Below, piece by piece: positions 7,368-50,864 of a DNA stretch of 64,000 nt. The stretch is from contig JAGOQR010000001.1 of the NCBI GenBank assembly GCA_017991415.1, positions 109,385 to 173,384 of the forward strand, in the 5' to 3' direction. The first letter of the stretch is position 1. Every line of letters starts with the position of its first letter. The position numbers and the translations under genes were made by a program. Source of the stretch: Candidatus Magasanikiibacteriota bacterium. Lineage in GTDB: Bacteria > Patescibacteriota > Patescibacteriia > Magasanikbacterales > GWA2-37-8. Under the pieces are notes generated by a model. The model did no database searches and had not been told where the DNA came from. It saw only the letters and a list, made by a program, of their open reading frames with translations.

Positions 7368-7390
7368 AACAAAAAGACGCTGATGCAAGA

Positions 7391-7419
7391 TTGACAAAAG
7401 CGTCTTTTTTTGATATAAT
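7391..7419 (+). promoter_or_regulatory. Consensus sigma70-type promoter TTGACA-N17-TATAAT upstream of high-GC island 1
   Basis: Exact TTGACA (7391-7396) and TATAAT (7414-7419) with a 17-nt T-rich spacer. The -35 lies in the loop of an AAAAAGACGC/GCGTCTTTTT hairpin. It is followed by a ~95-nt leader with a CGAAGC...GCTTCG hairpin and an AAGGAGAG SD. Confidence 0.6.
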
Positions 7420-7518
7420 GCTTCGTTGTTCTTTACAAATTTTGAGACTCTGATTGACCCACCTATCGAAGCAGTCGCTTCGGTGGTTCTATAGGGTCTC
7501 AACGATAAGGAGAGTCCG

Positions 7519-8523
7519 ATGAAGAACTTGTTTTGGTCCATCTTGACGATGGCCGCCATCATGCTCAGTCTCAGCGCGTGCGACGACTACCAAGTGATGC
7601 CGCACAGCACCTGCACCCAGGACAGCGAGTGCCCAAACACCAGCGTGTGCATCGAGAATTCTTGCGTGCTCCAAGTACCGCTCACCTGCGTGGAGCTCGG
7701 CTGCCCAAATGGCACCGAGTGCCAAGATGACGTATGTGTTGAGTTGGCGCCGCCACACAATGACTGCGATGCCTTTCAGTGGATGACGACTTCCCAGTGG
7801 TATTGCAACTATACTGAGGGAGAACCAGCACCAGAACCGTGGATTTGCCATCTCAATACCACAGACGGTACTGCAAGCGATGGCAGCTGCAACATTCAAT
7901 GCGCTGGCAACTTCTGGCTACCAACCCAGGAGTTCGATATCGACATGAACGCATCGCCGCCGCAGCTAAAAACAGACTACTACGGTCGAGAGTTTACATG
8001 TACCCAATACGTGTACATACCTCCATCGGCAACCTGTGGTATTGCTGTTCAGGTTCCAAATAGCCTTTCGGTGTTTGTTCAGCCGACTGGCAACGCAAAC
8101 CTGCTCTGGTTCGACTTCGTCAAAGTCGGGCCAGATTCACCTGAATGTTCTCCAGAAATCGTCAGGATCGAAATCTTGGAGATGGACAACGCGTTTGGCT
8201 TTATCCCGAATCCAAAGATGCAGATCGGAATTAACAACTCCTTTCTCGTCGCTCCTCTAGCAAACTATGGGGAAGCCGATAGTCTCCTGCCATGGTGGAG
8301 CAAGACTTACTACCAATGGGATGGCGTCGCGCCAGTCGGCAAGAAGACCACTATCCTGTTCAACTGCGATGGCAACTGCGGTCCGCCCAACATGCCGTCT
8401 AACCCCATCGTGCTTCACACCAAACTCTTGCGCTACTGGTGGAGGAAGAACCCAACAGCGCCAACGGTCTCTGGCAACGCGGGGGCAGAACACACGATCT
8501 ACTTCACCCCTCCTACCCTCTGA
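7519..8523 (+). CDS. Cysteine-rich secreted lipoprotein (high-GC island 1)
   Basis: Signal peptide with lipobox LSLSAC. About 58% GC against a ~35% background. An N-terminal cluster of CxxxC motifs resembles EGF-like Cys repeats. 334 aa. The many overlapping ORFs on both strands are GC artefacts. Confidence 0.6.
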   Translation: MKNLFWSILTMAAIMLSLSACDDYQVMPHSTCTQDSECPNTSVCIENSCVLQVPLTCVELGCPNGTECQDDVCVELAPPHNDCDAFQWMTTSQWYCNYTEGEPAPEPWICHLNTTDGTASDGSCNIQCAGNFWLPTQEFDIDMNASPPQLKTDYYGREFTCTQYVYIPPSATCGIAVQVPNSLSVFVQPTGNANLLWFDFVKVGPDSPECSPEIVRIEILEMDNAFGFIPNPKMQIGINNSFLVAPLANYGEADSLLPWWSKTYYQWDGVAPVGKKTTILFNCDGNCGPPNMPSNPIVLHTKLLRYWWRKNPTAPTVSGNAGAEHTIYFTPPTL

Positions 8524-8656
8524 CCAACCCTCCTTCTTGGCCTCACAACGCCGACCAGGAGATTCGATGCACACAAGGTGCATGCGAACGTGAACGGCTG
8601 CTACGAGAATGCAGCCGATTGAATTAAATTTCTAAACTCTTGGAAATTTATCCAAA

Positions 8657-8690
8657 CAAAAAACCGACTCATAAACAAAGTCGGTTTTTT
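8657..8690. terminator. Bidirectional intrinsic terminator
   Basis: AAAAAACCGACT-cataaacaa-AGTCGGTTTTTT hairpin with A/T runs on both sides. Sits between the convergent genes at 7519-8523 and 8700-9650. Confidence 0.7.
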
Positions 8691-8699
8691 ATTTTTAAG

Positions 8700-9650
8700 T
8701 TAATCCATCCATTTTTTAGCTTTAAAAGCGACAAGCATAGACAAAGCGCCTGCTAGTGTAACCAAGGAAATTATCCAAAAACCATAGGGGCTGGTAACAA
8801 ACGGCGTACCGCCAGCATGGATAGCAAAAATAGTAGCTACCAGAGTAAGCGGGAACGTGGTTACAGAGATAATCGTGAGTGTCTTCATAATCTCGTTCAT
8901 ACGAAGTCCTACCACAGATTCGTTTGTTTCGTCGAGCGCATCGGCACTTTCTTTGTGACTTTCGAGGGTATGCCAAATATCCATAGTATAGTCACGAACA
9001 GTATTTATATAGCTTTGATATGCCAGCAAGTTAAGATCTCGGCCGCCAATAGAAACGAGGCGATCCAAGACAATTTTATGACTTTGCATGGCTCTACGAA
9101 AGTTAGTCACGTTCATTTTGAGACGCAAAATTTCTTCGGCCATTTTTCTATCAGGAATTCTGGTAAACAAAATTTTATCAATTGAATTTATATCTTCATT
9201 TATATGAAGCAAAATAGGAAAAATAGATTCGAGCAATCGATTAAGAATTTCAAAAAAAATGTGAGTAGCTGCTCCTTGAAAATATAATTCTCGCACCTCT
9301 GTTTTTTTCTGACACTCCTTAAAAAAATTGTCTATGACTTGTAAGCTATTGTCATGAACAGTAATTAGGTTGCTGCCACTTAAGAAAAAATCTACTTCTG
9401 TAAACCCAAGGCGCCTAGTCGCGCGATCAAAAACAGGAAAATGCAACACCAAAAAATAGTAACTATCTCTTTTAACGAACTTTGGACGTTGAAATGAGGG
9501 TAAGCTTTCTCGCACCTCCTGATCAGCAAGATTAAATCTTTTTTGCAATGTTCGTAAAACTTTTTCTTCTGGCTGCGTAACATTTACCCACTGCAAACTG
9601 CTGCTTTGTATTTCATTTATATTCTTCATAGAAGAAAAAGATTGAACCAA
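8700..9650 (-). CDS. CorA-like divalent cation transporter (atypical pore motif)
   Basis: 316 aa with a cytoplasmic N-domain and two C-terminal TM helices. The conserved LTxxTxxFxPxT stretch is present, but the GMN motif is replaced by AIHAGG. Confidence 0.55.
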   Translation of the reverse strand: MVQSFSSMKNINEIQSSSLQWVNVTQPEEKVLRTLQKRFNLADQEVRESLPSFQRPKFVKRDSYYFLVLHFPVFDRATRRLGFTEVDFFLSGSNLITVHDNSLQVIDNFFKECQKKTEVRELYFQGAATHIFFEILNRLLESIFPILLHINEDINSIDKILFTRIPDRKMAEEILRLKMNVTNFRRAMQSHKIVLDRLVSIGGRDLNLLAYQSYINTVRDYTMDIWHTLESHKESADALDETNESVVGLRMNEIMKTLTIISVTTFPLTLVATIFAIHAGGTPFVTSPYGFWIISLVTLAGALSMLVAFKAKKWMD

Positions 9651-9791
9651 ATATTAAACTCGTGTTTACATTATACCACATTGTGAGCGAAGCAAAAATA
9701 TGCTATCATACTTTATATGTTACGAAAGTATTTTTTTTAAAATTAAAGATGTTCCAACCGATTACAGTAAAGATCTGCTTATCAATTACGT

Positions 9792-10286: not shown

Positions 10287-12845
10287 ATGATTAACGAAAT
10301 CCTAAGTACTATTATTAGCTTGATTAGCAGCTTGTCAGAAAACAATCTATTTTTGACTATTTTGCCCTGGGCGCTTGGACTCATATTTATTATTTCCCTA
10401 CTCTATATTCTAAAAGCGGTTGTTACCGCCAAAGGACGCCAAAGCAAAGCCTTTCATAAAACAGTACTTCTCATAAAAGTACCGAAAGAGAAAAAAGGTG
10501 AAAAACCAGATTCAGCCAGCGCCGAAGATAATATCAACCATGTTCGTGAAGAAATAGCCGTATCCGAAACATTATTCTCTGCTATTGCTGGTTTAAAAAA
10601 AGAAAAAGGCATAATGGCTTGGCTCCGTGGACGCAACGACCATGTGGCTTTTGAAATTGTCGTCAAAGATAGCAAAATATCTTTTTATATTATTGTTCCC
10701 GACAAAATAAGAGGCTTTGTTGAACAGCAAGTACATGCACAATATCCTCATGCAGAAATTACCGAAGAACCAGATTATAACGCCTTCAAACCCCAAAGCC
10801 ATATTGTCGGATCTTACTTGTGGCTCAAACATAAATCTGCCTTTCCTCTCAAAAGCTATAAAAAACTAGATAGCGACCCGCTTGTGGCGCTTCTTAATCC
10901 ACTAAGCAAAATTAACGAAGACGAAGGAGCTATTATTCAATACATTGTTCGACCAGCCTCTAGTTTTTGGAGAAAAGAAGGCGTACACATGATTCGCGAT
11001 ATCAAAAAAGGCGAAAAATTTGAAGACGTAGCCAAACGAGGAGAATTTATGCGCGCAATGAGCGGCTGGACCAAATATATATTCCCTAAAAAGAAAAAAG
11101 ATAACCAACAAATTATTGAACCAAAATACCAACTCACCCAAATGGAAGAAGAGATGGTAAAAAACATGGAAGAAAAAATTAGCCGCGGTGGCGTAGAGGC
11201 AACTATTCGTTTAATTAGCTCTGCAAACAACAAAGAAAAGGCTGTAATGAATTTAGAAAATATTATCAATGCTTTTTCTCAGTATAACTTATACAGATAT
11301 GGCAACACCTTAAGCGCTATTGTTCCTCGACGACCAAATGCTCTTATCCGTGATTACATATATAGAAGCATGCGCGAGAAGCACTACATGGTTTTTAACA
11401 CCGAAGAAATGGCTAGTTTTTGGCACCTACCAATCCCCTCTACCGAAACTCCAAACATCAACTGGCTTGGCGCTCGCAAAGCACCGCCACCAACCAACAT
11501 TCCAAAAGAAGGTATCACTCTTGGCAGATCAGTCTATAGAGGCGAAGAAACAATTATCAAAATGAAACGCGAAGACCGCCGTCGTCATTTATATACTATT
11601 GGTAAATCCGGTAGTGGTAAATCTGTCTTTATTCAAAATCTAGCGGTACAAGACATTATAAACGGTGAAGGTGTTTGTGTTATCGATCCACACGGAGATT
11701 TTGTGGATTATGTATTACAACATGTACCAAAAGAACGCGCCGAAGATGTTATTTACTTTAACCCTTCCGATGTTGAGCGGCCAATCGGTCTCAACATGAT
11801 TGACGTAAACAGCGAAGAACAAAAAGATTTTGCCACCCAAGAAATGATTTCGATTTTCTACAAACTCGTTACTGATCCGTCCATGATTGGCCCAATGTTT
11901 GAACACAACATGCGTAATGTTATGTTAACACTCATGGCTGACACCGAAAATCCTGGTACTATCGCCGAAATTCCTCGCATGTTTACCGACGACGAATTTG
12001 TAAAAAGCTGGAAGAAAAAACTAACTGACCCAATGGTGCTTGCCTTTTGGGATAAAGAAATGGCCAAAACCTCAGATTTCCATAAATCTGAAATGCTTGG
12101 TTATTTAATCTCCAAAGTTGGTCGCTTTGTAGAAAATGCCATGATCCGAAATATCATTGGCCAAACCCATTCTGGATTTAACTTCCGCGAAGTCATGGAT
12201 CAAAAAAAGATCTTGCTTGTTAACCTGGCCAAAGGCTTAGTTGGAGAAATCAACTCCAACTTGCTTGGTTTAATTATTGTATCCAAATTACAAATGGCTG
12301 CCCTCGAACGAGCTTCGCTCCCCGAAGAAAAACGTCACGACTTTTATTTATACATCGATGAGTTCCAGAATTTTATTACCGAATCTATTGCCACAATTCT
12401 CTCCGAGGCGCGTAAATACCGTTTAGAACTTATTATCGCCCACCAGTACATGAAACAACTCGAAGATAACAAAGGCAAAACTACCGTACGCGATGCCGTA
12501 CTTGGTAACGCAGGTACAATTGTATCGTTCCGCATTGGTGTAGAAGATGCAGAAATTTTATCCAAAGAATTTGCCCCGGTATTTAGCGCCTACGACCTGG
12601 TAAACGTAGAACAATATACTGCCTACACCAAACTTCTTATTGACAATACAGCTGCCAAACCGTTTAATATGTTTACCTACCCCCCACGACCTGGCAACAA
12701 ACAGCTCGCAGCTGCCATCAAAGAGCTTTCAAGGCTCAAATATGGTCGCCCACGAGAAATTGTCGAAGCCGAAATTGCCGAACGAGCCCAATTGGGGGTT
12801 ACCATTCAAAAAGGAAAAACCGAACTGAGCGAAGTTGGGTTATAA
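10287..12845 (+). CDS. Membrane-anchored type IV secretion coupling-protein-like ATPase (VirD4/TraG/TraD family)
   Basis: 852 aa. N-terminal TM helices. Walker A TIGKSGSGKS followed by DPHGDF. C-terminal DEFQNF...ARKYRLELIIAHQYMKQL matches the TraG-D_C / coupling-protein motif. Confidence 0.6.
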   Translation: MINEILSTIISLISSLSENNLFLTILPWALGLIFIISLLYILKAVVTAKGRQSKAFHKTVLLIKVPKEKKGEKPDSASAEDNINHVREEIAVSETLFSAIAGLKKEKGIMAWLRGRNDHVAFEIVVKDSKISFYIIVPDKIRGFVEQQVHAQYPHAEITEEPDYNAFKPQSHIVGSYLWLKHKSAFPLKSYKKLDSDPLVALLNPLSKINEDEGAIIQYIVRPASSFWRKEGVHMIRDIKKGEKFEDVAKRGEFMRAMSGWTKYIFPKKKKDNQQIIEPKYQLTQMEEEMVKNMEEKISRGGVEATIRLISSANNKEKAVMNLENIINAFSQYNLYRYGNTLSAIVPRRPNALIRDYIYRSMREKHYMVFNTEEMASFWHLPIPSTETPNINWLGARKAPPPTNIPKEGITLGRSVYRGEETIIKMKREDRRRHLYTIGKSGSGKSVFIQNLAVQDIINGEGVCVIDPHGDFVDYVLQHVPKERAEDVIYFNPSDVERPIGLNMIDVNSEEQKDFATQEMISIFYKLVTDPSMIGPMFEHNMRNVMLTLMADTENPGTIAEIPRMFTDDEFVKSWKKKLTDPMVLAFWDKEMAKTSDFHKSEMLGYLISKVGRFVENAMIRNIIGQTHSGFNFREVMDQKKILLVNLAKGLVGEINSNLLGLIIVSKLQMAALERASLPEEKRHDFYLYIDEFQNFITESIATILSEARKYRLELIIAHQYMKQLEDNKGKTTVRDAVLGNAGTIVSFRIGVEDAEILSKEFAPVFSAYDLVNVEQYTAYTKLLIDNTAAKPFNMFTYPPRPGNKQLAAAIKELSRLKYGRPREIVEAEIAERAQLGVTIQKGKTELSEVGL

Positions 12846-14552: not shown

Positions 14553-14592
14553 TAAAAAAATAAATGTCTGACCTCTATAAGAGCAGAAAAGG

Positions 14593-14622
14593 CTTGACTT
14601 GCGCTATTTCTATGATACAATC
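14593..14622 (+). promoter_or_regulatory. Candidate promoter for tRNA-Gln
   Basis: TTGACT-N16-TACAAT located ~30 nt upstream of the tRNA 5' end. Confidence 0.45.
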
Positions 14623-14653
14623 CTAGACGCTTTGCAGAACTACAATACAAACA

Positions 14654-14724
14654 CTCCGAGGTGGTCTAATGGTAGGACAGCAGACTCTGAATCTGCTTAT
14701 CTTGGTTCGAATCCAAGCCTCGGA
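14654..14724 (+). tRNA. tRNA-Gln (anticodon CUG)
   Basis: Hand-folded cloverleaf. 7/7 acceptor stem TCCGAGG/CCTCGGA, D-arm GTCT-AATGGTA-GGAC, anticodon stem GCAGA/TCTGC with loop CTCTGAA (U33, C34 U35 G36, A37). T-arm CTTGG-TTCGAAT-CCAAG, discriminator A. CCA is not encoded. Confidence 0.85.
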
Positions 14725-14878
14725 ACAACTCTGAAAAAGCCCCAATTTTTTCGACAATTCGCCAGCCCCGTTTGGCTAAGAATTCAATTTTTGCCACTCA
14801 GAACAAAGTTAAAGGGAGTGAGCAGACAATATAATTGAGCCAAATCTAGGAAATAAATTAAACGATTAATTAAAATAT

Positions 14879-14901
14879 AAAACCGCGCAATGCGCGGTTT
14901 T
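14879..14901. terminator. Intrinsic terminator after tRNA-Gln
   Basis: AAAACCGCGCA-A-TGCGCGGTTTT. Confidence 0.7.
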
Positions 14902-15007
14902 ATTATGAGTGAGGCGTACCTTTCTAGCGCCATTGATGAATAGCAGTAACAATCAGTTCTCTTTCTCCGCAAGCTCTCTATAGACCAGTATCTTTTACTC
15001 AAGTCCC

Positions 15008-15316
15008 TCATTTGCCTTGTATGTTGTACTTAGGTTTGTACTTCGGAATTTCGGCAAGCTCATGCTTTTCCGTCTCTGCGACGGTGTCGCACTGTTCATA
15101 ACCGAAATGGGTGACGTCAGGCCATTTTCTCTCACTCAGGTGTTGAAGCAATCTGCCGCGCACACCACCATCAGCAACCGATTTGCCAATATAGTAAATG
15201 GTAAGCTTTCCTTCCGGTGTTTTAACGCCACAGTAATACACGCCAATAACATTAGAATTCCAACTGGTGAGAGTTGTGGAATCAAATGGATATGGACCTT
15301 TGAATGCGTAAATCAT
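15008..15316 (-). CDS. GIY-YIG nuclease domain protein
   Basis: GVYYCGV...IYYIGKS...R...LQH...E pattern of the GIY-YIG fold. 102 aa, sits immediately downstream of the tRNA. Confidence 0.65.
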   Translation of the reverse strand: MIYAFKGPYPFDSTTLTSWNSNVIGVYYCGVKTPEGKLTIYYIGKSVADGGVRGRLLQHLSERKWPDVTHFGYEQCDTVAETEKHELAEIPKYKPKYNIQGK

Positions 15317-15464
15317 AATCTCTTTATCTTCTCGTTTTAGTTGGTAGACAGTTCGACTAGGCCGCTACTTATTACCTTGTACTTTAGCATAAGTGTTTTT
15401 AGTGTCAAGTTTATCCACACCCAATGTTTGATTTTTAGACACTATTAGTGTATATTGTTAGTAT

Positions 15465-16160
15465 ATGAGAAAAAACTATCATATTGCCATAAAGCAATTG
15501 CGTATACAAAGAGGATTTTCGCAATCAGAGATTGCCCAAAAAATGGGTATCTCTCGCACCTCATACATCTCTTTTGAACAAGGTAAGCGTGATATTAGCC
15601 TATCCGAAGCGGCTCAACTAGCCGATATTTTTGGTATTTCCTTAGAAGAAATGGAGAGCGGTACTATTGCAAATTATGAAAAGTACAAAGAAATGATTTT
15701 AGCCTTTTTGCGGTGTGTTGCATCAGTTGATGGAAAAATTCCAAAAACCAAATTAGCCAAGTTGGTTTATCTTGCTGATTTTTCTTGGTTTTATAAACAT
15801 TTGGAAAGTATGAGCGGGATGCAATACCGTAAAATACAATATGGCCCAGTACCGGATAGTTATTTTCGGGCTATTGATGAGCTGGAGGAGTCGGGTAAAA
15901 TCGTAATTGACAGAAAAGAGAAAGAGGGAAGAGAGATGTTGCTCATTTCCGAATCGCAAAGTAATATAAATAAAAAAGTTTCTACATTATTTAAAGACGA
16001 GCTGTCTTTGATTAAAAATATTGCAAAAAAATGGAAAGATAAAAAAACAAATGAAATTGTTAATTTTACGCATAATCAGTTGCCGTATTTGATATCCCGC
16101 GATAACGAGATCATCCCGTATGAATTGATTACACAGGAGGATCCGGAGTATGTCTACTAA
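15465..16160 (+). CDS. HTH-XRE regulator fused to a Panacea (SocA-like, DUF4065) antitoxin domain
   Basis: The N-terminus has an XRE helix-turn-helix (QSEIAQKMGISRTSYISFEQGKR). The C-terminal segment KLAKLVYLADFSWF...YGPVPDSY resembles the Panacea/DUF4065 antitoxin domain. Its stop overlaps the start of the downstream gene by 11 nt. Confidence 0.6.
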   Translation: MRKNYHIAIKQLRIQRGFSQSEIAQKMGISRTSYISFEQGKRDISLSEAAQLADIFGISLEEMESGTIANYEKYKEMILAFLRCVASVDGKIPKTKLAKLVYLADFSWFYKHLESMSGMQYRKIQYGPVPDSYFRAIDELEESGKIVIDRKEKEGREMLLISESQSNINKKVSTLFKDELSLIKNIAKKWKDKKTNEIVNFTHNQLPYLISRDNEIIPYELITQEDPEYVY

Positions 16161-16542
16161 CTATAGTGTTGTATTTGCAGATTTTGCCGAAAGGCATTTC
16201 ATCAAAAGTTTTAAAAAGAAGTATAAAAATGCGTGGGATTATACGCTAGCCGCTCTCCGTTCTGAATTTGAAAATTTTGATTTATTGTTTCAAAAGAGCA
16301 TCGCAGAAAAAATTTACCAATCCTCCGTATTAGATATTTGTAAAACAGAATTTAGGATTGCTGGAACAGATGTGTCGCGGCGTGCATCAGGAAATCGTTG
16401 TATTGTGGCTATTCACAAAGAAACAAATACTGTCCATGTTCTTTTAGTTTACCATAAAAATGATATTGGAGATGATAACGAGACATCAAAATGGAAGAGT
16501 GTAATTAAGGCAAATTTTCCGCAATATAAACAAATTCTATAA
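16150..16542 (+). CDS. Candidate toxin, RelE/ParE-superfamily-like (divergent)
   Basis: 130 aa. C-terminal pattern NRCIVAIHKETNTVHVLLVYHKND parallels the RelE/ParE C-terminus (GYRLVYQVIDEKVVVFVISVGKRE). Translationally coupled to the Panacea antitoxin. Confidence 0.45.
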   Translation: MSTNYSVVFADFAERHFIKSFKKKYKNAWDYTLAALRSEFENFDLLFQKSIAEKIYQSSVLDICKTEFRIAGTDVSRRASGNRCIVAIHKETNTVHVLLVYHKNDIGDDNETSKWKSVIKANFPQYKQIL

Positions 16543-16645
16543 CCTTCTAAAAATTTTTGACCATTAAATATAATAAAATTAAGAACTTAATTTTTTTATT
16601 AAAGGCAAGGTTTCGCTATGTTAGAGCCAGGCGGCTAATTAAAAG

Positions 16646-17056
16646 TTGCATATGCTTACAGAAAATGATGTAGTTAAAATCTTGGCTATTTATTTAGAAA
16701 AGGAGGGTTATAAAATAATTCAAAAGTTAACTACTTTAGAAAAAGGTTTTGATATTGTTGCAGAAAAAAATAGAATAACTCTATATATAGAAGCAAAGGG
16801 AGGAACGAGCTCAAAGAAAGGGTCACGTAGGTATGAAAAGCCGTTTACTAAAAATCAAGTCGGTACACATGTTTCCGTGGCAATAATGGCTTCTTTGAAA
16901 ATATTATCCAAGGGTAATAAAAAGTTTAAAAAAGTAGCAATGGCATTTCCAGATAATGAAAATCATAGGGCTGTAATTGCTCCAATAGCGCCATTGTTAA
17001 AAAAAATTGGAATTATGATATTTTTGGTAAATGAAAATTTAGTCACTAAGATATGA
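16646..17056 (+). CDS. Small PD-(D/E)xK nuclease-fold protein
   Basis: GFDIVAEKN...LYIEAKG gives a D-x(n)-E-x-K arrangement. 136 aa. Confidence 0.45.
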   Translation: MHMLTENDVVKILAIYLEKEGYKIIQKLTTLEKGFDIVAEKNRITLYIEAKGGTSSKKGSRRYEKPFTKNQVGTHVSVAIMASLKILSKGNKKFKKVAMAFPDNENHRAVIAPIAPLLKKIGIMIFLVNENLVTKI

Positions 17057-17229
17057 GAAATCAAAACATAATCATCCTAAAGATAATTATTGCGGTTAGT
17101 GCTATTTTGTCGGTTCTATTTTTTACTTTATATAAATGGAAGACGCTACGTCATTTGAAAAAGAAACAATATATCGTGAAGCTATAAAATATCAGTACGA
17201 AGTCGCTTTTTGGAAAATATGGACCTTCG
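17053..17229 (+). CDS. Small membrane protein (58 aa), translationally coupled to the PD-(D/E)xK gene
   Basis: ATGA start/stop overlap with the preceding gene. Single hydrophobic helix IIILKIIIAVSAILSVLFFTLY. Below the ORF-track length cutoff, found by manual translation. Confidence 0.25.
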
Positions 17230-17280
17230 GCGCCTTTGTCTTTGCCGGTGCATTGCTTTTAATAATTGTTATACCAAAGG

Positions 17281-17372
17281 AAAGAAAAACTTGAAATCGT
17301 CAAAAAGCGCGCTCACCTGGGCGAGGCGGGCGGAATTCCTCCCCAACCCCCTCCTTCCGCCCGCTATTCCGT
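17281..17372 (+). repeat. Left copy of a ~90-bp GC-rich inverted repeat pair (partner at 59896-59981)
   Basis: AAAGAAAAACTTGAAATCGT...GGCGGGCGGAATTCCTCCCCAACCCCCTCCTTCCGCCCGCTATTCCGT. Contains a 9-bp GC stem CGGGCGGAA/TTCCGCCCG. About 88% identical to the reverse complement of 59896-59981. Confidence 0.8.
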
Positions 17373-17410
17373 TAAATCCGTTCGAATTTTCGTATATTCA
17401 CTGAACCAAT

Positions 17411-17444
17411 AAAAAAACAGCTATATAAGCTGTTTTTTTATTTT
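17411..17444. terminator. Intrinsic terminator
   Basis: AAAAAAACAGCTTATATAGCTGTTTTTTTATTTT-type hairpin (ACAGCT/AGCTGT stem) plus a T-run. Confidence 0.65.
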
Positions 17445-17509
17445 ATACACATGGCAATACTGCGCTCTAACTTATTGACACAGCGAATAATTTACTTTAT
17501 TTTATAGCC

Positions 17510-18160
17510 ATGGACATCAAAATCGAAATCCTCATCGGCGCTCCTACCTCGGTTCTGGGCGCCCTGGGTATTCGAGGCGCCAAGATTACCCTCACACCAA
17601 GGCAAAAGGGTAAGAGCCTCCCCCGCTTATGGATTGACAAAAAAGAGCACTTCTCCTACTTCTTCACCATCGAAGAGGCCCAAAAAGGACTAGACCGCAT
17701 CCTGATTTCTAGACCTAGGATTAAGATCAAGATTTTGCGGAGGCTGCGCAAAGCGGGTCTGTTCTGGGATATGGAGTCAGTCCTGTCCTACTGCCAGAAA
17801 CTCGCTGTTATCAAAGATTCAACATACGACTTCGTGAAGTGCACGCGTTGCGCCTACGCGTCGCTGGTGCCCCACGGCTGGATAGTCACAGAAGGGAAAC
17901 TGATCCAGACAAAGATTCCGATACTGCTCCACCAACAGGTCACAAACCTGAAAGACCTCATCTTTAGGTTCTGTGCCGAAGGAGTCTGGCTTGGCGAGAT
18001 CCCTCTCAAAGCAGCCCTTTGGGTGATCCATCAAGGCGCAAAGGCGCAAATGGGAGCAGACTCTCGAGGCCTTCTAAGACTGCTGCTACAAGACCCAATT
18101 CGACACCTCCGGGGGCCACTTCCAACAGACCACCACATCTGTCGCGAAACAGGTCCATAA
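17510..18160 (+). CDS. Hypothetical protein (high-GC island 2)
   Basis: 216 aa ORF at about 55% GC with no recognisable domain. TTGACA-N19-TTTTAT lies directly upstream and there is no SD. It is the least convincing of the seven high-GC islands. Confidence 0.4.
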   Translation: MDIKIEILIGAPTSVLGALGIRGAKITLTPRQKGKSLPRLWIDKKEHFSYFFTIEEAQKGLDRILISRPRIKIKILRRLRKAGLFWDMESVLSYCQKLAVIKDSTYDFVKCTRCAYASLVPHGWIVTEGKLIQTKIPILLHQQVTNLKDLIFRFCAEGVWLGEIPLKAALWVIHQGAKAQMGADSRGLLRLLLQDPIRHLRGPLPTDHHICRETGP

Positions 18161-18290
18161 ACTTCAATCTCTCTGTACGGGGAGATCGGCAATACCAATT
18201 TCAAGCGTGGAGGCCTTGAAAAAACCTTGTCAGCTGCCGCTACCAGCTGAAATTTCCAATGAATATCATGTATATCATGGTAACTGTTGG

Positions 18291-18330
18291 GAAAAAAACA
18301 TCCCATGTTTAGCATAGGATGTTTTTATTT
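18291..18330. terminator. Intrinsic terminator
   Basis: AACATCC...GGATGTT hairpin followed by TTTTATTT. Confidence 0.5.
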
Positions 18331-36368: not shown

Positions 36369-36398
36369 TTGACAAGGCTTACTATTTTTTGTTATATT
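36369..36398 (+). promoter_or_regulatory. Promoter module TTGACA-N18-TATATT upstream of high-GC island 4
   Basis: Similar to the island 1 and island 5 promoters (TTGACAAGGCTTACTATTTTTTGTTATATT). The downstream leader has a GGCTATAAATTTATAGCC palindrome and an AAGGAG SD 8 nt before the ATG. Confidence 0.45.
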
Positions 36399-36522
36399 TG
36401 TTTATTCTCCTAATTTTAAGGGGTTTTTGACTCTTTACAAAATGCATATAAGTTACAGGGCAGGAATTTTATGGCTATAAATTTATAGCCCTAGAGTCCT
36501 TGTCCTGTGGCAAGGAGCTGCA

Positions 36523-37146: not shown

Positions 37147-37258
37147 CCGGTCATCAGTACCTGCAGCGATGATCCCGGCAAGATAAAACCACCCTCGAAC
37201 GCACTGTGCTTATAATAATTTGTAAGTAGAATGCGAGGGTGGTTAACAAAAATAATTG

Positions 37259-37294
37259 AAAAAGCAGACTATTACTAGTCTGCTTTTTCTTTTG
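37259..37294. terminator. Intrinsic terminator
   Basis: AAAAAGCAGACTA-ttac-TAGTCTGCTTTTTCTTTT. Confidence 0.7.
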
Positions 37295-37307
37295 TTGAAA
37301 ATACTAA

Positions 37308-38350: not shown

Positions 38351-38830
38351 TTACAATGCCCCAACTGGCTCATCATCCGCAATACCTTGTAGTGAAGCTA
38401 ATTCTAAATATATTTCACTTCCAACTTCTTCATCCTCTGTAAATTTCCATCTTTGCTCTTCGTTTATAAATAATTTTTTATAAGCCTTGCCAAGCAGACG
38501 AAATGTTTCCGACCGCTCCAAGCCGTAGTCTCTTTCTATTTTTAAAACGTCCTGTAAAACCTTCCGTGCTTTTGCCTGCAACTCTCTTTCATCATCTTCA
38601 ACAGCTAATTCAAAATGCTGCACTCGTTCCGCCCTCAACTGAAGATAATCAGGAAACATTTCTGTTACTTTTTTCACTAACGCCTTGAGTCGGTGTATTA
38701 TAAACTGCTCCCGTTCCAGTTCATTCTCTATAGAAGCTGCGGATGGATCAAAATTTTGATTACTTTTTTCAGTCCTGTTTTGGGCATCTTTTTGTGCTGC
38801 AGCACGATCTGGAGAACTAAATCTTTTCAT
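38351..38830 (-). CDS. Hypothetical protein
   Basis: 159 aa, charged. Probably the last gene of the ABC transporter operon. Confidence 0.4.
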   Translation of the reverse strand: MKRFSSPDRAAAQKDAQNRTEKSNQNFDPSAASIENELEREQFIIHRLKALVKKVTEMFPDYLQLRAERVQHFELAVEDDERELQAKARKVLQDVLKIERDYGLERSETFRLLGKAYKKLFINEEQRWKFTEDEEVGSEIYLELASLQGIADDEPVGAL

Positions 38831-40604: not shown

Positions 40605-41051
40605 CTATTTATTCGAAGCCCGAGCTACGGCTTGGTTCAGAATATCTTCCAGCTCCTGAGTAGCGTTTTTATTTAACAAATTCAATTGATGAATGAAGGT
40701 CGCGCGCAGATTGGCTGGCACCGCCAATTCAAAAAACTTGCGAAAGATTTCTGCTTTTTCTTGCGGATAGATAAATGTTTTCCAGCCACGTGCAGAAAAT
40801 TCCTCAGCACAACCAGCCAAATACCGAGGATCTTCTACTTCAATTTTTTCTCGATCCACATCAATCTGCCCTTCTGCAAAATGTTCGGCGCGTACATATA
40901 CCCCTTTAGATACAAGGTCTTTTAACAAGGCAGGTATTTTTTTAGTTAGACCAGGCGTACAAAAAACTAATTCTAAACCACTATCTATTTTTTTAAAAAT
41001 GGCACTTGTTTTATAATCTTGACTGCAGATACAGAAAAAAAGCATTAACAT
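40605..41051 (-). CDS. Hypothetical protein
   Basis: 148 aa. Confidence 0.35.
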   Translation of the reverse strand: MLMLFFCICSQDYKTSAIFKKIDSGLELVFCTPGLTKKIPALLKDLVSKGVYVRAEHFAEGQIDVDREKIEVEDPRYLAGCAEEFSARGWKTFIYPQEKAEIFRKFFELAVPANLRATFIHQLNLLNKNATQELEDILNQAVARASNK

Positions 41052-41059: not shown

Positions 41060-42793
41060 TTATTGATTATTAACAAAGTAGTCCAAATCTAAAAAGTTAT
41101 CATTTTCGTCTCTCCAGTCAGTATTAAAGAGGAGAGGCTCAGAATTGTCATTTAGAATCGAAAAAAGTTGCTGTTTTTCATCTTCAGTAAATAAACCCGC
41201 ACGAAAAGTTGTAAAATCTAAATCGTTCGCATTTACAATTTGATCAACTGCGGACAATAATTTTTCTGCTCTAGCATTACCAAAGGATTTACTTTGCTCA
41301 TCTATTTCTTGAGCGTCAAAAAATAATACTTCCAATGACTGATCGGATGGCGGTAAGGTTTTTAACTTTTTTACTCCTGTTTTATCAGCTTGAAGACTGG
41401 CTAATAAAAACTCTCGGTCTTGACAAAACACTATATACTTAAGTACTAAGCCTCGTTCAGCGTCGGTTAATTTAGAATCTAAAAAAGCAACTAATTCTTG
41501 TCGGCCTTGCTGCTGCAAGGCTTTATCAATTGCCTTATCTGCATTAAGTTCATGCTGATCAAGCCATGCTTGGTATCTATCGCGCATTAAAGGTGATAAA
41601 GTTTTAAACTGAGCTTCAATTTCTTTATACCTTTTATATGCTTGCTCTTTATTCATCTTACTTGTAATTTCTAACCGAGCTTGTAACGCCTTATCTCGAT
41701 CAAAATTGGGGTCCATTTTTTTAACAAACTCATCCACCAGTTTATAGTCTGCTTCTGGTAAATTTAATTCACCATCAAAATAAGCCCCTCCAATTTCTGC
41801 CCAATATTCTTCGGCTTTTATATTCAATTCTTCTTCTTTATCTTCATTACTAATTGATTCAACATATGCTGATATATACCGATCTTCAGATTGGACACGA
41901 TCATATACTGCTACTTTCAAACTTGCTCGTTCAGTTTTAGTAAGCCTCCCACTTCTCTTCCAGTCTCCCGCATGACTACCTTCATGGGCGAGCGTCCTAC
42001 TCCATATCGATCGTGAAGACGCGCTTTCTTTTGTCACAGAAATAAGTTCTGTGCCAAAAATTTCAATCCCATATGCCGCACCTTTCATTCCTCTCCAAAA
42101 AACTATACTGGTGTCAGCACCGCCCAAACCACCCTCAGCAGTCGCCACTGCCTGAGAATGTTTATGCAATTCTGATCCATAACTTTCATGCATCGCATAC
42201 CTCTCATTTATAAAATCAATCAACCCAATTTCATTAGTAAACCCCTTTGGAAATGTTGCTAAAATGGCATCAATACGTTCTGGCGTAGCCTCAGAATCTA
42301 AATTCTGCAGATTATCATAATTAATAGCTAGATGATGATTAGTATCATACTCTCTAGAATCAAGCCGCCTGCTGAGCTTATAAAGCTGACCTCCAAGAGA
42401 TGCTGCTAACCCAAGATAGACGGCTGCCCATTGCAATTTATACTTTGTTTGCACTTCCCTCAACGCAGCAACTAACTGCTTGTCTCCTGCTTCTTTCTCA
42501 TCCACATTCCAATCCTCATTATTATTTTCTAGTTCTAAAGCTTCTTTTTCTAATCTATTAAGAACCTGACTCATATGACCCATACGCACCTGTTCTGCAA
42601 ATTCTTCATCTGTATCAAGCAGTTCATAAAAAAGATCTGGATACCCTCTATCAACCCAAATTTGACTACCTCTCACAAGATTTTCATCTCCTAAAAACTG
42701 CTCTATGCGCTTCTGCATATCAATTGCCTGAACATCAAGCTTCTTATTGTTATGATCATGCGCAATAACAGACTCTCCTCTTCCTCTTTCCAT
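41060..42793 (-). CDS. Acidic hypothetical protein with an HExxH zincin-like motif
   Basis: 577 aa with no signal peptide. LAHEGSHAGDW contains HEGSH. Confidence 0.4.
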   Translation of the reverse strand: MERGRGESVIAHDHNNKKLDVQAIDMQKRIEQFLGDENLVRGSQIWVDRGYPDLFYELLDTDEEFAEQVRMGHMSQVLNRLEKEALELENNNEDWNVDEKEAGDKQLVAALREVQTKYKLQWAAVYLGLAASLGGQLYKLSRRLDSREYDTNHHLAINYDNLQNLDSEATPERIDAILATFPKGFTNEIGLIDFINERYAMHESYGSELHKHSQAVATAEGGLGGADTSIVFWRGMKGAAYGIEIFGTELISVTKESASSRSIWSRTLAHEGSHAGDWKRSGRLTKTERASLKVAVYDRVQSEDRYISAYVESISNEDKEEELNIKAEEYWAEIGGAYFDGELNLPEADYKLVDEFVKKMDPNFDRDKALQARLEITSKMNKEQAYKRYKEIEAQFKTLSPLMRDRYQAWLDQHELNADKAIDKALQQQGRQELVAFLDSKLTDAERGLVLKYIVFCQDREFLLASLQADKTGVKKLKTLPPSDQSLEVLFFDAQEIDEQSKSFGNARAEKLLSAVDQIVNANDLDFTTFRAGLFTEDEKQQLFSILNDNSEPLLFNTDWRDENDNFLDLDYFVNNQ

Positions 42794-42992
42794 AAAACTT
42801 CTTTAAGAAATAAATCTATAATACTGAATTAATATAATAGCTCTAAAGAAGAATAAAATCAAACGAATTAGTAAAAAAATAGAGACTAAAATCTTTTTTA
42901 AATAAAAGCGCACCGTGGGTACAGTGCGCGAGGACGGCAGCGAGATGTCGTCGAAGACGAACAAGTCGCATGTTGCTGAAAGAACGAAGGAA

Positions 42993-43652
42993 CTAGTGCA
43001 AGCAGCGAAACTTGGCAGGCGCGGGACGATTCGCATCGTCTTCGGCCAACCTAGCTGCTGGAGCCGTGTAGCTCGAGTCGCAACTTGCGTGGCGGCAGAT
43101 TTCTTTCACATCTGCGCCAGTGACACGCCAACTGCTTGCTGGCGTAGTCATCACAGCGTGCGATCCTTCGGCAAGATGCTCTGCACCGAGCGCATGACCG
43201 AGCTCGTGAGCGACTACGTTCTGCATCATCCAGGTGCAGGACGTGTTGGGAGCACAAGCGCCGTTGCCATAGACGAAGACGTTGTCTCCGTCATACTCTC
43301 CGGCGAGCGAATCGCTCTCATCTTCGGGACGAGCTCCTTCCCACAGATCCCTACCCTCTTCGGTGGGGTAGTTCTCGTAGATCCAGTACACACACCGGAT
43401 TCCGCTGTTCTCTCCGCTACCGTAGAGACCCGGCTTCTCGCTGCCGTAGACGAAGAACTTGTTCTTGTTCTCGTATCGGGCATTGAGATTGAGATCGTCG
43501 ATAGCCGCCTTGATCTGGTCGATCTGCGGCTGAAGCCAGCCGCCACAGGCATAAACCGTGACGGTTTCCTGCCTGGCCACCTCTGGAAGAGGGGGCGCTC
43601 CTTCGCAGGCCGTAAGCACTGCGAAGCAACACAGAAGAATGAAACACTTCAT
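42993..43652 (-). CDS. Lipoprotein metzincin-type zinc metalloprotease (high-GC island 5)
   Basis: Signal peptide with lipobox VLTAC. Extended zinc-binding motif VVAHELGHALGAEH (HExxHxxGxxH). About 62% GC. 219 aa. Confidence 0.6.
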   Translation of the reverse strand: MKCFILLCCFAVLTACEGAPPLPEVARQETVTVYACGGWLQPQIDQIKAAIDDLNLNARYENKNKFFVYGSEKPGLYGSGENSGIRCVYWIYENYPTEEGRDLWEGARPEDESDSLAGEYDGDNVFVYGNGACAPNTSCTWMMQNVVAHELGHALGAEHLAEGSHAVMTTPASSWRVTGADVKEICRHASCDSSYTAPAARLAEDDANRPAPAKFRCLH

Positions 43653-43722
43653 GTGAGACTCCTCTCAGGCTTTGGCCTGTCGATTGTCATAGTGCCAACT
43701 GTAGGCACGATGATATAATCGC

Positions 43723-43751
43723 ATTATACCAAAAAACAAGGCTTTTGTCAA
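43723..43751 (-). promoter_or_regulatory. Consensus promoter TTGACA-N17-TATAAT for the metzincin gene, near-identical to the island 1 promoter
   Basis: Minus-strand sequence is AAGGCTTGACAAAAGCCTTGTTTTTTGGTATAATGC, against island 1's TTGACAAAAGCGTCTTTTTTTGATATAATGC. The -35 again lies in a hairpin. The leader has an AGGAG SD 6 nt before the ATG. Confidence 0.55.
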
Positions 43752-43820
43752 GCCTTTTCTGCTTATTTTTTGCTAATTATAGAGAAAAAATATACTCCTT
43801 CCACTCATTCTATCTGCCTA

Positions 43821-45806: not shown

Positions 45807-45835
45807 TTGACAAGCGCCACTTTTTATGCTAAAAT
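45807..45835 (+). promoter_or_regulatory. Promoter module TTGACA-N17-TAAAAT upstream of high-GC island 6
   Basis: TTGACAAGCGCCACTTTTTATGCTAAAAT. It is followed by a nested-hairpin leader at 45851-45898 (AGCCCCTA...CCCGTAGC-aaatcc-GCTACGGG...TAGGGGGCT), then an AAAGGA SD and a GTG start. Confidence 0.45.
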
Positions 45836-45960
45836 TAGAAGTTAATTTTCAGCCCCTATACTGGTGCCCGTAGCAAATCCGCTACGGGAGTCCGTAGGGG
45901 GCTGACACGCCTCCTTAAATAGTTTTAATTGGCTCAACAAGATCAACGAAAGGACTACCA

Positions 45961-46467
45961 GTGCCCACTCGTCTTTCCCTTCTGGCCCTCGTGCTCGCAG
46001 CTTGCACCGCGGTGCACCGCCCCAACCTCTCCGACGACACGGTCAACAAGAAGACCAACGTCTTCTGGCAGATCGAGGTGCTCAGCCCGCCGCCGAACTG
46101 CGGCCTGATCGTGTTCCATAACCAGCCCGGCGAAACCACAGCTCTGCCGATGCAAGTCGTGGAGGGCAAGGCCAACGTATTCAGTGCCACGTCCCCCATC
46201 GATACGCCGCTCAAGTTCATGATCGAGGTGAAGATTCGCGACAACACCAACGAGTGTGTCTCCTGGACGAACTACTGCGGCCCCATCACCATGCGGCATG
46301 GCCGTTCGCTCCAGACTTTGCACAAAACACGCCCAATCTTCTGGGCGCTCATGTCCTTCGCCGAGGGCGATGGCATCTCGAGCTTGAACTCAAGTACTGT
46401 CGAGCCGTTTCCAGGCTGGACACCGCTCACCTGCGAGTACCGTTCGTTCGGCTGGAACGAGAACTGA
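45961..46467 (+). CDS. Lipoprotein, hypothetical (high-GC island 6)
   Basis: GTG start 6 nt after the AAAGGA SD. Lipobox LAAC. 168 aa at about 60% GC. Confidence 0.5.
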   Translation: MPTRLSLLALVLAACTAVHRPNLSDDTVNKKTNVFWQIEVLSPPPNCGLIVFHNQPGETTALPMQVVEGKANVFSATSPIDTPLKFMIEVKIRDNTNECVSWTNYCGPITMRHGRSLQTLHKTRPIFWALMSFAEGDGISSLNSSTVEPFPGWTPLTCEYRSFGWNEN

Positions 46468-46603
46468 TCAGGCCACCAAGCCAGATCCCTGAGCGACTCG
46501 GACGCACTGCGCGACCGATGCGACTCAGAAATACATCCGGGCCGCTCACGCAATGTAATAATTACTTGTTACGTTGCGTGAGCTCGGATGTATATTACAT
46601 TTT

Positions 46604-46640
46604 TAAAAAAACCTTTCTCTAATCAGAAAGGTTTTTTTAT
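46604..46640. terminator. Intrinsic terminator
   Basis: AAAAAAACCTTTCT-ctaatc-AGAAAGGTTTTTTTATT. Just upstream is a long imperfect palindrome at 46532-46597. Confidence 0.7.
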
Positions 46641-49514: not shown

Positions 49515-49713
49515 ACACATGATCAAAAATAATATAAAACGCTTACGGGAAACCCGAGGCTTCACCCAAGAAGATTTTGCCAGCGCGCTCAAAGTTTCTC
49601 GTCAGACTATTATTGCCATGGAAAAAGGAAACTACGAACCTTCACTCGGTTTGGCTTTAAAGGTAGCAAAGTTTTTTGATTTGCCAGTGGAAAAAATTTT
49701 TAACTCTAATTAA
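49507..49713 (+). CDS. XRE-family HTH transcriptional regulator
   Basis: 68 aa. FTQEDFASALKVSRQTIIAMEKGNYEPS forms the helix-turn-helix. Confidence 0.8.
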   Translation: MDKHMIKNNIKRLRETRGFTQEDFASALKVSRQTIIAMEKGNYEPSLGLALKVAKFFDLPVEKIFNSN

Positions 49714-49735
49714 TATAAAAATATTAAATTTTTCT

Positions 49736-50107
49736 ATGCCGCGCCTCAAAATTCTTATCTACTATATTTTGCTCCTGGTTCTTATCGCCTCAATTACCGG
49801 GTACTTACTATTCAAACCAATGGATGAAATGTCCATGCCAGCGCTTATTTCTGCCTGCACTTTTCTCGTATTGTATTCAATTTTTATTTCTTTAGCTGGA
49901 GAAACAAAATGTGAAGATGAGCGAGAGATATTACATCGCAATCTCTCTAACCGTGTAGCCACCATAGCTGCCACACTATTTATCTCTGGCGGACTTATCT
50001 ACCAAATTTTTGTTATACACCATATAGACTGGTGGCTGCTGATAACTTTGATTATTATCAACCTCACCAAAATTACGAGTTTAATTTATTTTCATTATAA
50101 AAAATAA
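49736..50107 (+). CDS. Small membrane protein partnered with the XRE regulator
   Basis: Four TM helices. The start is set at an internal Met to remove the 38-nt overlap of the ORF-track call 49676-50107. Confidence 0.45.
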   Translation: MPRLKILIYYILLLVLIASITGYLLFKPMDEMSMPALISACTFLVLYSIFISLAGETKCEDEREILHRNLSNRVATIAATLFISGGLIYQIFVIHHIDWWLLITLIIINLTKITSLIYFHYKK

Positions 50108-50138
50108 CCATCACTATTACTATCAGTAAATATAAAAA

Positions 50139-50178
50139 CACCTCGCATTTCTGCAAGGTGTTTTTATATTTTTGTAAG
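50139..50178. terminator. Intrinsic terminator
   Basis: AACACCTCGCA-tttc-TGCAAGGTGTT with one mismatch, plus TTTTTATATTTTT. Confidence 0.6.
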
Positions 50179-50266
50179 AGACCTCCGTATCTATAGACAT
50201 AATTTCATATACCCATAGATACGCAAGGAGGCCTCCTGGAAACAACGGCGTTGCCGTGTCGCCCGC

Positions 50267-50740
50267 TCACCCGTAGAACCCCAGCCACTTCTGATACCAG
50301 TGCGGCGGGTAGACCTCGTCGGCGCGCAGAACCTGGTCGTCCTCAGACGAGCTGACCTCAACAGGGTTGGTTCGCACATCCATGTTCACGAGGAACTGGA
50401 AGTCGCACGCCCCCTTGCCGAGGTAGGTCGAAATCACAGCCACACCCCGATCATCAGACCATACCCGACCGTAGTAGTCGAAGCCGCTGTACCCGACGAG
50501 CGGGATGCTGAGCTTGAACCCAACTAGCGCACAGAACGGCTTGGAGCTTCGTAGGACGATGTTGGCCATCCGCCCCTTCTCCTTGCTTCCCTCGTAGCGC
50601 CAGACGATCAGATGGTCCGACCGTTTGACGAAGTCCTGCATGAAGCCGAACTTCTTGAGGTGCTCGCGACCAAGGAAGATCGCAAGCGGCACGAAGACAA
50701 GAACCAGGGTGACCAGAACAATAATGAGAGCCGTCATCAA
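50267..50740 (-). CDS. Membrane-anchored hypothetical protein (high-GC island 7)
   Basis: 157 aa at about 58% GC, with an N-terminal TM helix. The likely ATG is at 50737 because the first codon of the track ORF is TTG. The promoter TTGACC-N17-TATGCT at 50783-50811 (minus strand) has the same architecture as the other islands. The leader has a CGACTGCA...TAGTCG hairpin and a GGAGG SD. Confidence 0.45.
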   Translation of the reverse strand: MMTALIIVLVTLVLVFVPLAIFLGREHLKKFGFMQDFVKRSDHLIVWRYEGSKEKGRMANIVLRSSKPFCALVGFKLSIPLVGYSGFDYYGRVWSDDRGVAVISTYLGKGACDFQFLVNMDVRTNPVEVSSSEDDQVLRADEVYPPHWYQKWLGFYG

Positions 50741-50864
50741 GCCTCCAGGTAATGCCGACTACACCATGCAGTCGAACAAAAGAGCATAACACAAAAACAA
50801 GCTCTGGTCAAGCCTGCAAGAAGAATAATTAAGAAGACCGCTACAAATTTTAGCCACTCATATC

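Follow-up and report, generated by a model that had tools for sequence, protein, structure and literature searches.

GC-rich, moron-like single-gene units in an AT-rich chromosome of the candidate phyla radiation

Phage morons, as described by Hendrix and colleagues, are reportedly single open reading frames (ORFs) that lie between resident genes and carry their own sigma-70 promoter and intrinsic terminator. In the model of Lawrence and Ochman, horizontally acquired islets are said to ameliorate toward the composition of the recipient genome. Integron cassettes are promoterless, are arrayed beside an integrase, and end in an attC site with R''/R' core sites. Elements that stabilize mRNAs include the 5' stem-loops of ompA, ermC and aprE, the STAB-SD of cry3A and the 3' retroregulator of cry1A. 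Here we describe a 64,000-nucleotide window of a Candidatus Magasanikbacteria chromosome (Patescibacteria, also called the candidate phyla radiation, CPR), in which seven guanine- and cytosine-rich (GC-rich) genes, termed islands 1 to 7, are dispersed over 43 kb of adenine- and thymine-rich (AT-rich) sequence. We propose, with a probability of about 0.55, that they are genuine moron-like accessory units of a flexible CPR gene pool, and that their GC-richness would be maintained by selection on mRNA structure.

The islands share features with each of these systems. Like morons, they consist of one ORF with its own predicted promoter and terminator, have an atypical composition, and can be present or absent between close relatives. 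Unlike morons, they lie among housekeeping genes (CysS/CorA, PMSR/TK, SWIB/DEAD helicase) with no prophage context or PHROG match, and some appear to have been retained since ancient times with a stable atypical composition. The phage moron would still be the closest anatomical analogue, although the units are chromosomal and without phage link. As in the islets of the amelioration model, GC and codon usage are atypical, the distribution is patchy (islands 4 and 6) and the content includes ORFans, but islands 2, 3 and 5 have not ameliorated despite saturating synonymous divergence (dS). Like integron cassettes, the islands are single-gene units, and the long hairpins in the 3' untranslated regions (3'UTRs) of islands 4, 6 and 7 resemble the imperfect palindrome at the 3' end of a cassette. 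However, the islands have their own promoters and are dispersed, there is no integrase among the annotated neighbors, and no GTTRRRY attC core was found by eye in the island 3'UTR hairpins. With the mRNA-stabilizing architectures they share a 5' stem-loop near a strong Shine-Dalgarno (SD) sequence and a stable 3' stem-loop before the terminator. The island coding regions differ from these in being GC-rich and over-structured as well, the trait is common to unrelated genes, and the stabilizing role is putative. A literature search found no account of this phenomenon.

Composition, divergence and mRNA structure of the islands

A sequence-only reading of the window had listed seven isolated high-GC single-gene islands. 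All seven ORFs were found at the positions it gave, and sliding-window GC and codon usage bore out the description. The GC contents of islands 1 to 7 were 0.535, 0.524, 0.507, 0.534, 0.576, 0.600 and 0.580, respectively. The contrast claimed by that reading is therefore real, but its values were slightly off: 55-62% GC was somewhat too high for the islands, and about 35% was slightly too low for the background, which is 0.38-0.39 in the window. The GC of third codon positions (GC3) was 0.53-0.82 in the islands, with 0.82 in island 6 and 0.79 in island 7, and 0.22-0.41 in the 53 native long ORFs (GC 0.379 ± 0.033; GC3 0.317 ± 0.042, maximum 0.41). The distribution was bimodal with zero overlap, and z(GC3) of the islands was 5-12. 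C3 was 0.16 in native genes and 0.37 in the islands, G3 was 0.15 and 0.28, and TTA made up 30% and 1% of Leu codons, respectively; Cys was four-fold enriched in the islands. The codon dialect of the islands is thus wholly unlike that of the native genes, and the islands also differ among themselves in GC3 and in third-base preference, island 3 being T3-rich. The type IV pilin gene, a highly expressed native control, had a native-like GC3 of 0.31. In 100-nt windows the GC switch at the island edges took place within about 50-100 nt. It was as sharp as had been claimed, but it included the leader in addition to the ORF and 3'UTR. These edges coincide with the predicted transcript ends, with no gradient into the native flanks, and no further whole-gene GC islands were found in the window.

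The islands are genuine genes. The context of islands 1 and 7 is unchanged in no fewer than eight and seven assemblies, respectively, which come from different sequencing runs. Islands 3 and 5 are present in other species, and the exact island proteins are recorded for an NCBI metagenome-assembled genome and for many Logan/ENA assemblies. Since the same junctions recur in seven to eight or more independent assemblies, the islands are not chimeras. The ratio of nonsynonymous to synonymous divergence (dN/dS) was 0.08 for island 3 and 0.11 for island 5 against the sister species, and 0.23 for island 2 against its orthologue in loci L088 and L090, from which island 2 differs by 43/44/94 changes at the three codon positions (GC 0.52). 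Islands 2, 3 and 5 are protein-coding, the stated frames being under purifying selection with changes in excess at third positions, and GC3 periodicity reaches 0.82 in the islands. On the opposite strand of island 5 there is a codon-aligned ORF of 267 aa (42915-43718, plus strand), which one public assembly, that of the 99.4%-identical strain L002, calls as the gene. It is not conserved in the orthologues, and dual coding was rejected in favor of a shadow ORF. Structured non-coding RNA was likewise rejected as the nature of the islands, given the purifying selection on the ORFs, zero Rfam matches and the lack of global covariation; an Rfam scan of the window returned tRNA only.

The dS of islands 2, 3 and 5 to their orthologues equals that of the flanking native genes (0.56-1.0 to saturated), with GC unchanged. 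More distant orthologues at the same site kept the composition. Four lineages with a dS of 1.0-1.5 had an island-5 GC3 of 0.65-0.70, and locus L013, at saturation, had 0.53; in the island-3 family GC3 was 0.49-0.60 at dS above 2. In the same genomes the native DEAD helicase gene had a GC3 of 0.32-0.43. Since these three islands have diverged like their native flanks and yet are GC-rich, recent transfer is not the whole explanation, and islands 2, 3 and 5 have apparently been inherited vertically for a long time. Neutral amelioration toward the native GC3 would require an ancestral GC3 of at least 0.98. Three-taxon parsimony polarization was judged unreliable, and lineage-specific synonymous singletons were used instead. 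For island 5 these were 17/60 for strong-to-weak (S>W) and 14/21 for weak-to-strong (W>S) changes, giving an implied equilibrium GC3 of 0.70 compared with the current 0.74. The pooled native genes gave 55/157 (S>W) and 130/444 (W>S), so that the W>S rate per site of island 5 was 2.3 times the native one (Fisher p=0.001). For island 3 the singletons were 26/99 (S>W) and 28/86 (W>S), with an implied equilibrium of 0.55 and a current GC3 of 0.54. Amelioration was not seen in islands 3 and 5, the substitution spectra of which were stationary.

The folding of the coding sequences (CDS) was compared with shuffles in which synonymous codons were permuted within the gene, with the protein and the codon counts fixed. 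The z values of islands 1 to 7 were -2.2, +0.6, -4.4, -1.0, -5.4, -0.9 and -1.6 (mean -2.1), whereas 18 native genes had a mean of -0.12 (Mann-Whitney U test, p=0.006). Orthologues reproduced the effect. In the island-5 family the CDS z was -2.3 to -5.3 in eight AT-rich genomes but only -1.5 in a GC-rich genome, and in the island-3 family it was -3.6 to -4.9. RNAalifold returned local helices with compensatory changes. The structured CDS and UTRs, together with strong SDs, point to selection for structured, probably long-lived mRNAs. Since the islands are compositionally stationary and carry excess mRNA secondary structure, we infer that their GC-richness is actively maintained. It would be kept by selection for structured, stable and SD-dependent mRNAs in a genome where native genes mostly lack SDs.

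Anatomy and products of the units

Each island would be an individually transcribed, self-contained unit (Table 1). The proposed order is a near-consensus sigma-70 promoter, often inside the upstream terminator hairpin, then a GC-rich, structured leader, a strong SD, a single ORF, a 3'UTR that is likewise structured, and finally an intrinsic terminator. The promoters of islands 5, 4 and 6 match the consensus at 12/12, 11/12 and 11/12 positions and hold the first three ranks among the 61 promoter-like sites between 32 and 51.5 kb, and that of island 1 is perfect. The promoter of island 7 matches at 9/12 positions, and those of islands 2 and 3 are weaker. The leaders of islands 1, 4, 5 and 6 folded better than dinucleotide shuffles (z -3.2 to -4.9), whereas those of islands 2, 3 and 7 showed no significant excess. 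The sequence-only reading was correct about the intrinsic terminator, which follows each of the seven, and about the strong SDs beside native genes with weak or absent ones. The anti-SD duplex energy was -5.3 to -11.1 kcal/mol in six of the seven islands, compared with a native median of -1.5 kcal/mol in the window (Mann-Whitney U test, p=0.0025), and only 11% of native genes reached -6 kcal/mol or below. All five 3'UTRs tested outfolded dinucleotide shuffles, with z from -4.2 to -9.2. Island 2 had also been rightly singled out as an exception, with a weak promoter, no SD and no significant leader fold. Its -10 hexamer ends 6 nt ahead of the ATG, and therefore its mRNA is probably leaderless; this geometry is kept in a 15%-diverged allele.

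In two units the promoter is built into the terminator of the upstream gene. The -35 of island 1 sits in the terminator hairpin (7373-7411), and that of island 5 sits in the loop of such a hairpin (overlap 43723-43756, minus strand), the T-run of the terminator being the spacer of the promoter. The same overlap was found in L006, L008, L013 and L108, and it is conserved across species with a compensatory stem change from AAGGC/GCCTT to GGGGC/GCCCT. The whole island-5 unit is conserved in seven genomes, and its pre-SD hairpin keeps its structure while the sequence varies.

Table 1. Predicted elements of the seven island units (positions in the window)
Unit	Span	Strand	Promoter	Leader hairpin and SD	ORF	3'UTR	Terminator
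Island 1	7391-8696	+	TTGACA-17-TATAAT, 7391-7419	hairpin 7444-7500; SD 7507-7514	7519-8523	structured	8658-8696
Island 2	17475-18330	+	TTGACA-17-TATTTT, 17475-17503		17510-18160		18296-18330
Island 3	33326-34300	-	weak, 34272-34300	SD 34259-34265	33371-34249		T-rich terminator region 33326-33370
Island 4	36369-37293	+	36369-36398	hairpin 36455-36508; SD 36512-36517	36523-37146 (ATG 36526)	long hairpin 37187-37244	bidirectional, 37259-37293
Island 5	42900-43751	-	TTGACA-17-TATAAT, 43723-43751	pre-SD hairpin and SD 43659-43679	42993-43652		42900-42929
Island 6	45807-46639	+	45807-45835	hairpin 45850-45904; SD 45949-45954	45961-46467	27-bp hairpin 46533-46591	46605-46639
Island 7	50128-50811	-	50783-50811	small hairpin 50755-50775; SD 50742-50747	50267-50737/50740	hairpin 50178-50236	50128-50165

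The 3'UTR hairpins of islands 4, 6 and 7 are long and near-perfect, with a GC-rich stem and an AT-rich apex (approximately TAATAATTTGT), and similar ones were observed in 3'UTRs of loci L011 and L027. They occur in unrelated islands, upstream of and separate from the actual terminators. A common 3'UTR element seems doubtful; an automated hairpin search mostly returned terminators, and the AT-apex hairpins are restricted to a few units.

Most of the units would encode lineage-restricted lipoproteins or secreted or membrane-anchored proteins. The lipoboxes LSAC, LTAC and LAAC (motif [LVI][ASTG][GAS]C, read from the sequence) end the hydrophobic N-termini of island 1, a 334-aa Cys-rich lipoprotein, island 5, a putative 219-aa mini-metzincin lipoprotein, and island 6, a 168-aa ORFan lipoprotein. 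The product of island 3 is a beta-rich protein of 292 aa that carries a signal peptide, and that of island 7 is a protein of 156-157 aa (156 aa as called in other assemblies) with an N-terminal transmembrane anchor, which agrees with the earlier count of five secreted, lipidated or membrane-anchored products. Island 2 encodes 216 aa without a signal peptide and island 4 encodes 207 aa. In the NCBI record island 3 starts later and is 201 aa long; the signal peptide of the 292-aa form is conserved in orthologues. The seven proteins and their DNA showed no relation to one another, and scans of Pfam, NCBIfam, PHROG and PADLOC gave no curated family assignment. The AlphaFold models of islands 1 and 3 were too poor to use (predicted local distance difference test (pLDDT) scores of 34 and 29, respectively). 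Island 6 matched only itself among 5.8 billion protein clusters, and island 3 matched two clusters, both from its own genus.

The island-5 family has about 20 representatives among 1.84 billion proteins, and its named members are all Patescibacteria. The lipobox Cys is invariant and four Cys are conserved. The residues H149, E150, H153, G156 and H159 of the HExxHxxGxxH motif are invariant or nearly so in 12 sequences, and most members have a Met-turn-like (S/A/G)xM 7-9 residues past the third His. In both respects the family resembles metzincins such as adamalysin, fragilysin and matrix metalloproteinases (MMP), in which the motif is followed by a conserved Met a few residues downstream; it differs from them in being only about 200 aa long, lipid-anchored and equipped with four conserved Cys. 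Matches of island 5 in Pfam and the PDB were exclusively to metzincins and, like those in NCBIfam, were below cut-offs and covered the zinc motif of about 30 residues only. A metagenome scan with the island-5 alignment gave motif-level matches only.

Strain variation, distribution and origin

The gene order of the window is kept in two relatives: L001, a sister species whose nucleotide identity is about 81-89%, and L002, a strain with 99.4% identity. Neither carries island 4, and the sister species lacks island 6 as well. The block missing with island 4 comprises about 36362-37300, where both relatives carry about 60 nt with the SWIB terminator. In the filled site this neighbor-terminator stretch is replaced, not interrupted, by the whole unit with its own AT-rich promoter and bidirectional terminator. 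No target-site duplication was found at the filled/empty junctions of islands 4 and 6, and site-specific insertion of the units was rejected because the junctions do not fit it. Island 4 marks the exact point at which the identity between the window and strain L002 falls, first from 99.4% to 94.5% and then to 91.7% (window 36361, L002 7661-7960), which indicates a mosaic genome arising from homologous recombination between diverged strains. Some units are thus strain-variable, and homologous recombination would exchange their filled and empty alleles together with the adjoining core DNA.

Single-nucleotide polymorphisms (SNPs) are strongly clustered over 0-14.5 kb. Among nine strains there were no SNPs at 7350-8726, which includes island 1, whereas the flanks have SNPs; as a sweep signal this is not decisive, since native stretches are SNP-free too. 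For islands 1 and 7, near-identical strains were the only ones in which they were observed. The sister species further lacks three genes with a native composition (38351-38830, 40605-41051 and 41060-42793, encoding 159, 148 and 577 aa), and therefore the accessory genome holds AT-rich genes as well.

Similar genes were found elsewhere in the CPR. In 83 related CPR loci, 46 of about 1,310 ORFs were GC/GC3 outliers, nearly all of them singletons. Their median SD energy was -6.5 kcal/mol, compared with -1.8 kcal/mol for the native ORFs (p=6e-8), their Cys content was 2.45% versus 0.99%, and they were enriched in lipoboxes with an odds ratio of about 15 (p=5e-6), a value somewhat inflated by orthologues. 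Island 3 has GC-rich orthologues at the same position in seven loci (L001, L002, L003, L006, L007, L008 and L113), and island 5 has orthologues in nine other genomes. Relative to its neighbors, the island-5 family is GC-richer by 10-20 points in all nine AT-rich CPR genomes, at no fewer than four chromosomal locations. One Patescibacteria genome has 61% GC, with a ribosomal-protein GC3 of 0.80-0.86; there the member matches its neighbors and has the same unit architecture. The ultimate source of the units is likely to be GC-rich CPR lineages, where this family and architecture are compositionally native. The idea that strong SDs were inherited from the norms of GC-rich CPR was set aside, as only a weak trend was seen. 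The units would belong to a flexible gene pool across AT-rich CPR genomes.

Neighboring outliers were observed in some loci. In L103 (8797-9288) the island-5 family member is followed by a unit for a Cys-rich lipoprotein, in L109 (2508-3062) it is followed by another GC-rich gene (GC 0.63), and in L068 (7217-11933) the GC-rich genes form a cluster of several instead of standing singly.

Searches of collections with 5.8 billion clusters and with 1.84 billion representatives, made individually for islands 3, 5 and 6 and not for islands 1, 2, 4 and 7, revealed no donor outside the CPR. IMG/VR, PHROGs, PADLOC, NCBIfam and tblastn against phage and plasmid records gave no phage, plasmid or defence links. 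Bacterial ORFans are usually AT-richer than their genome (PMC3514957), whereas the island ORFans are GC-richer.

The remainder of the window consists of ordinary chromosomal genes, including LigA, CysS, DnaX, SecA, CorA, PMSR, thymidine kinase (TK), DEAD-box helicase, ABC transporter parts, DsbD and type IV pilin; CysS, CorA, PMSR, TK, the DEAD helicase, the ABC transporter and DsbD are the neighbors of the islands. A VirD4/TraD-like coupling protein (10287-12845, plus strand), which adjoins housekeeping genes in this small CPR chromosome, and a RecD2/TraA-like helicase (60878-63682, minus strand) are also encoded. After DnaX, the region 14565-17411 contains tRNA-Gln and three very AT-rich small genes and differs between strains. 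It is replaced in L088 and L090 by a C39-type peptidase gene and in L089 by a serine recombinase and a Rep (rolling-circle) gene, and it looks like an integration hot spot. At 17306-17440 (plus strand) lies a GC-rich hairpin. Its stem is 11 bp long, its loop of 19 nt is C-rich (UUCCUCCCCAACCCCCUCC), and it bears two CCUCC motifs that resemble an anti-SD; an intrinsic terminator comes next (fold z=-5.0). The hairpin matched no Rfam family and was absent among the 112 loci compared. This hairpin could be a candidate small RNA or a 3'UTR element able to pair with SD sequences.

Alternative explanations and significance

Several points weigh against maintenance of GC by selection on mRNA structure. 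The stationarity tests comprise 31 and 54 substitutions and use parsimony polarization, and the method is biased upward, since the native implied equilibrium of 0.46 exceeds the native GC3. Native controls in other loci average a CDS z of -1.5, with one at -4.3. Excess structure is weak in the young islands 4, 6 and 7 (z -0.9 to -1.6) and absent from island 2 in the window, and for these islands simple recent transfer would be enough. RNAalifold did not yield one global fold that is conserved (covariation term +10.4). The GC-rich CPR source is drawn from one family and one genome, and islands 1, 4, 6 and 7 are without traceable relatives (1, 4 and 7 not individually searched). The promoters, transcription start sites, mRNA stability and secretion of the island products are predictions.

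The strongest competing explanation is ordinary recent acquisition from high-GC donors, in which the genes are now ameliorating, their GC is purely historical and good promoters are owed to the chance of landing. The sequence-only reading had suggested such an origin, and part of it stands, in that some units are recent arrivals: the composition is atypical, islands 4 and 6 are missing from close relatives, the ORFan island 6 and island 7 have the highest GC3 values with a codon dialect unlike the native one, the youngest islands show little excess structure, and the island-1 unit is SNP-free among strains in which its flanks are not. However, the orthologues of islands 2, 3 and 5 are as diverged as the native flanks with their GC kept, which refutes it as a general explanation. 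The substitution spectra are stationary, and the arithmetic of amelioration is impossible at a native dS of 1 or more. The inserted block already has a CPR-type promoter and terminator. The donor lineage that homology searches were expected to reveal did not emerge, since island 6 found only itself, island 3 its own genus and the island-5 family only CPR. We consider this explanation unlikely for the set as a whole. Similarly, the statement that the islands are not ordinary members of this genome is apt insofar as they look foreign and islands 4 and 6 are accessory, but some of them would be long-standing, selected residents.

GC-biased gene conversion is the main non-adaptive rival. The islands would then be recombination hot spots, and heteroduplex repair would fix W>S changes without selection on RNA. 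It could account for the excess of W>S fixation in island 5, and recombination breakpoints and SNP clusters do adjoin islands 1 and 4. On the other hand, the edges are sharp within about 50-100 nt and lie at transcript ends with no gradient into the flanks, and gene conversion predicts neither a codon arrangement giving extra structure at equal codon counts nor strong SDs and structured UTRs. We rate it as unlikely too, slightly more so than recent acquisition.

It is much less probable that the units are directed at the host, i.e., tuned to a GC-rich bacterial host of an episymbiont and expressed there or re-sampled from there. A consensus promoter, a strong SD and a GC-rich dialect within an SD-poor, AT-rich genome would suit this idea, as would the predicted secreted products and lipoproteins and the presence of the coupling protein and relaxase-like helicase in the window. 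The wide spread of GC3 and the third-base differences among the islands argue against tuning to a single host, dS tracks the flanking genes, so that inheritance appears vertical, all relatives are CPR, and there is no evidence for transfer machinery linked to the units. Finally, an artefact, whether assembly chimeras, the engineered or synthetic inserts that the sequence-only reading had entertained, or spurious ORFs in GC-rich non-coding RNA, has a negligible chance of being correct, because although long ORFs arise by chance in GC-rich DNA, of which the antisense ORF over island 5 is an example, that ORF is not conserved, whereas the island junctions recur in independent assemblies and other species and the stated frames are under purifying selection with no Rfam match.

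Our preferred reading is thus that of moron-like accessory units with GC maintained by selection on mRNA structure. A broader and more tentative proposal, to which we give less than an even chance, is that a second "expression dialect" persists in AT-rich CPR bacteria. In it, selection over long spans of evolution would hold the entire transcripts of surface and secreted proteins GC-rich and highly structured, and they would be translated through strong SDs, which ordinary genes of the genome lack. Composition would then be functional, through mRNA longevity and/or an SD-dependent regulon under separate control, and not a trace of past transfer. Compositional outliers are routinely taken as recent transfer, and that reading fails for part of this island set. 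If true genome-wide, the finding would call for caution in GC-based calling of horizontal gene transfer in CPR genomes and would provide a natural test case of selection on mRNA structure versus mutational bias. A simple sequence signature would then flag, in uncultivated CPR bacteria, the candidate secretome for interaction with the host.

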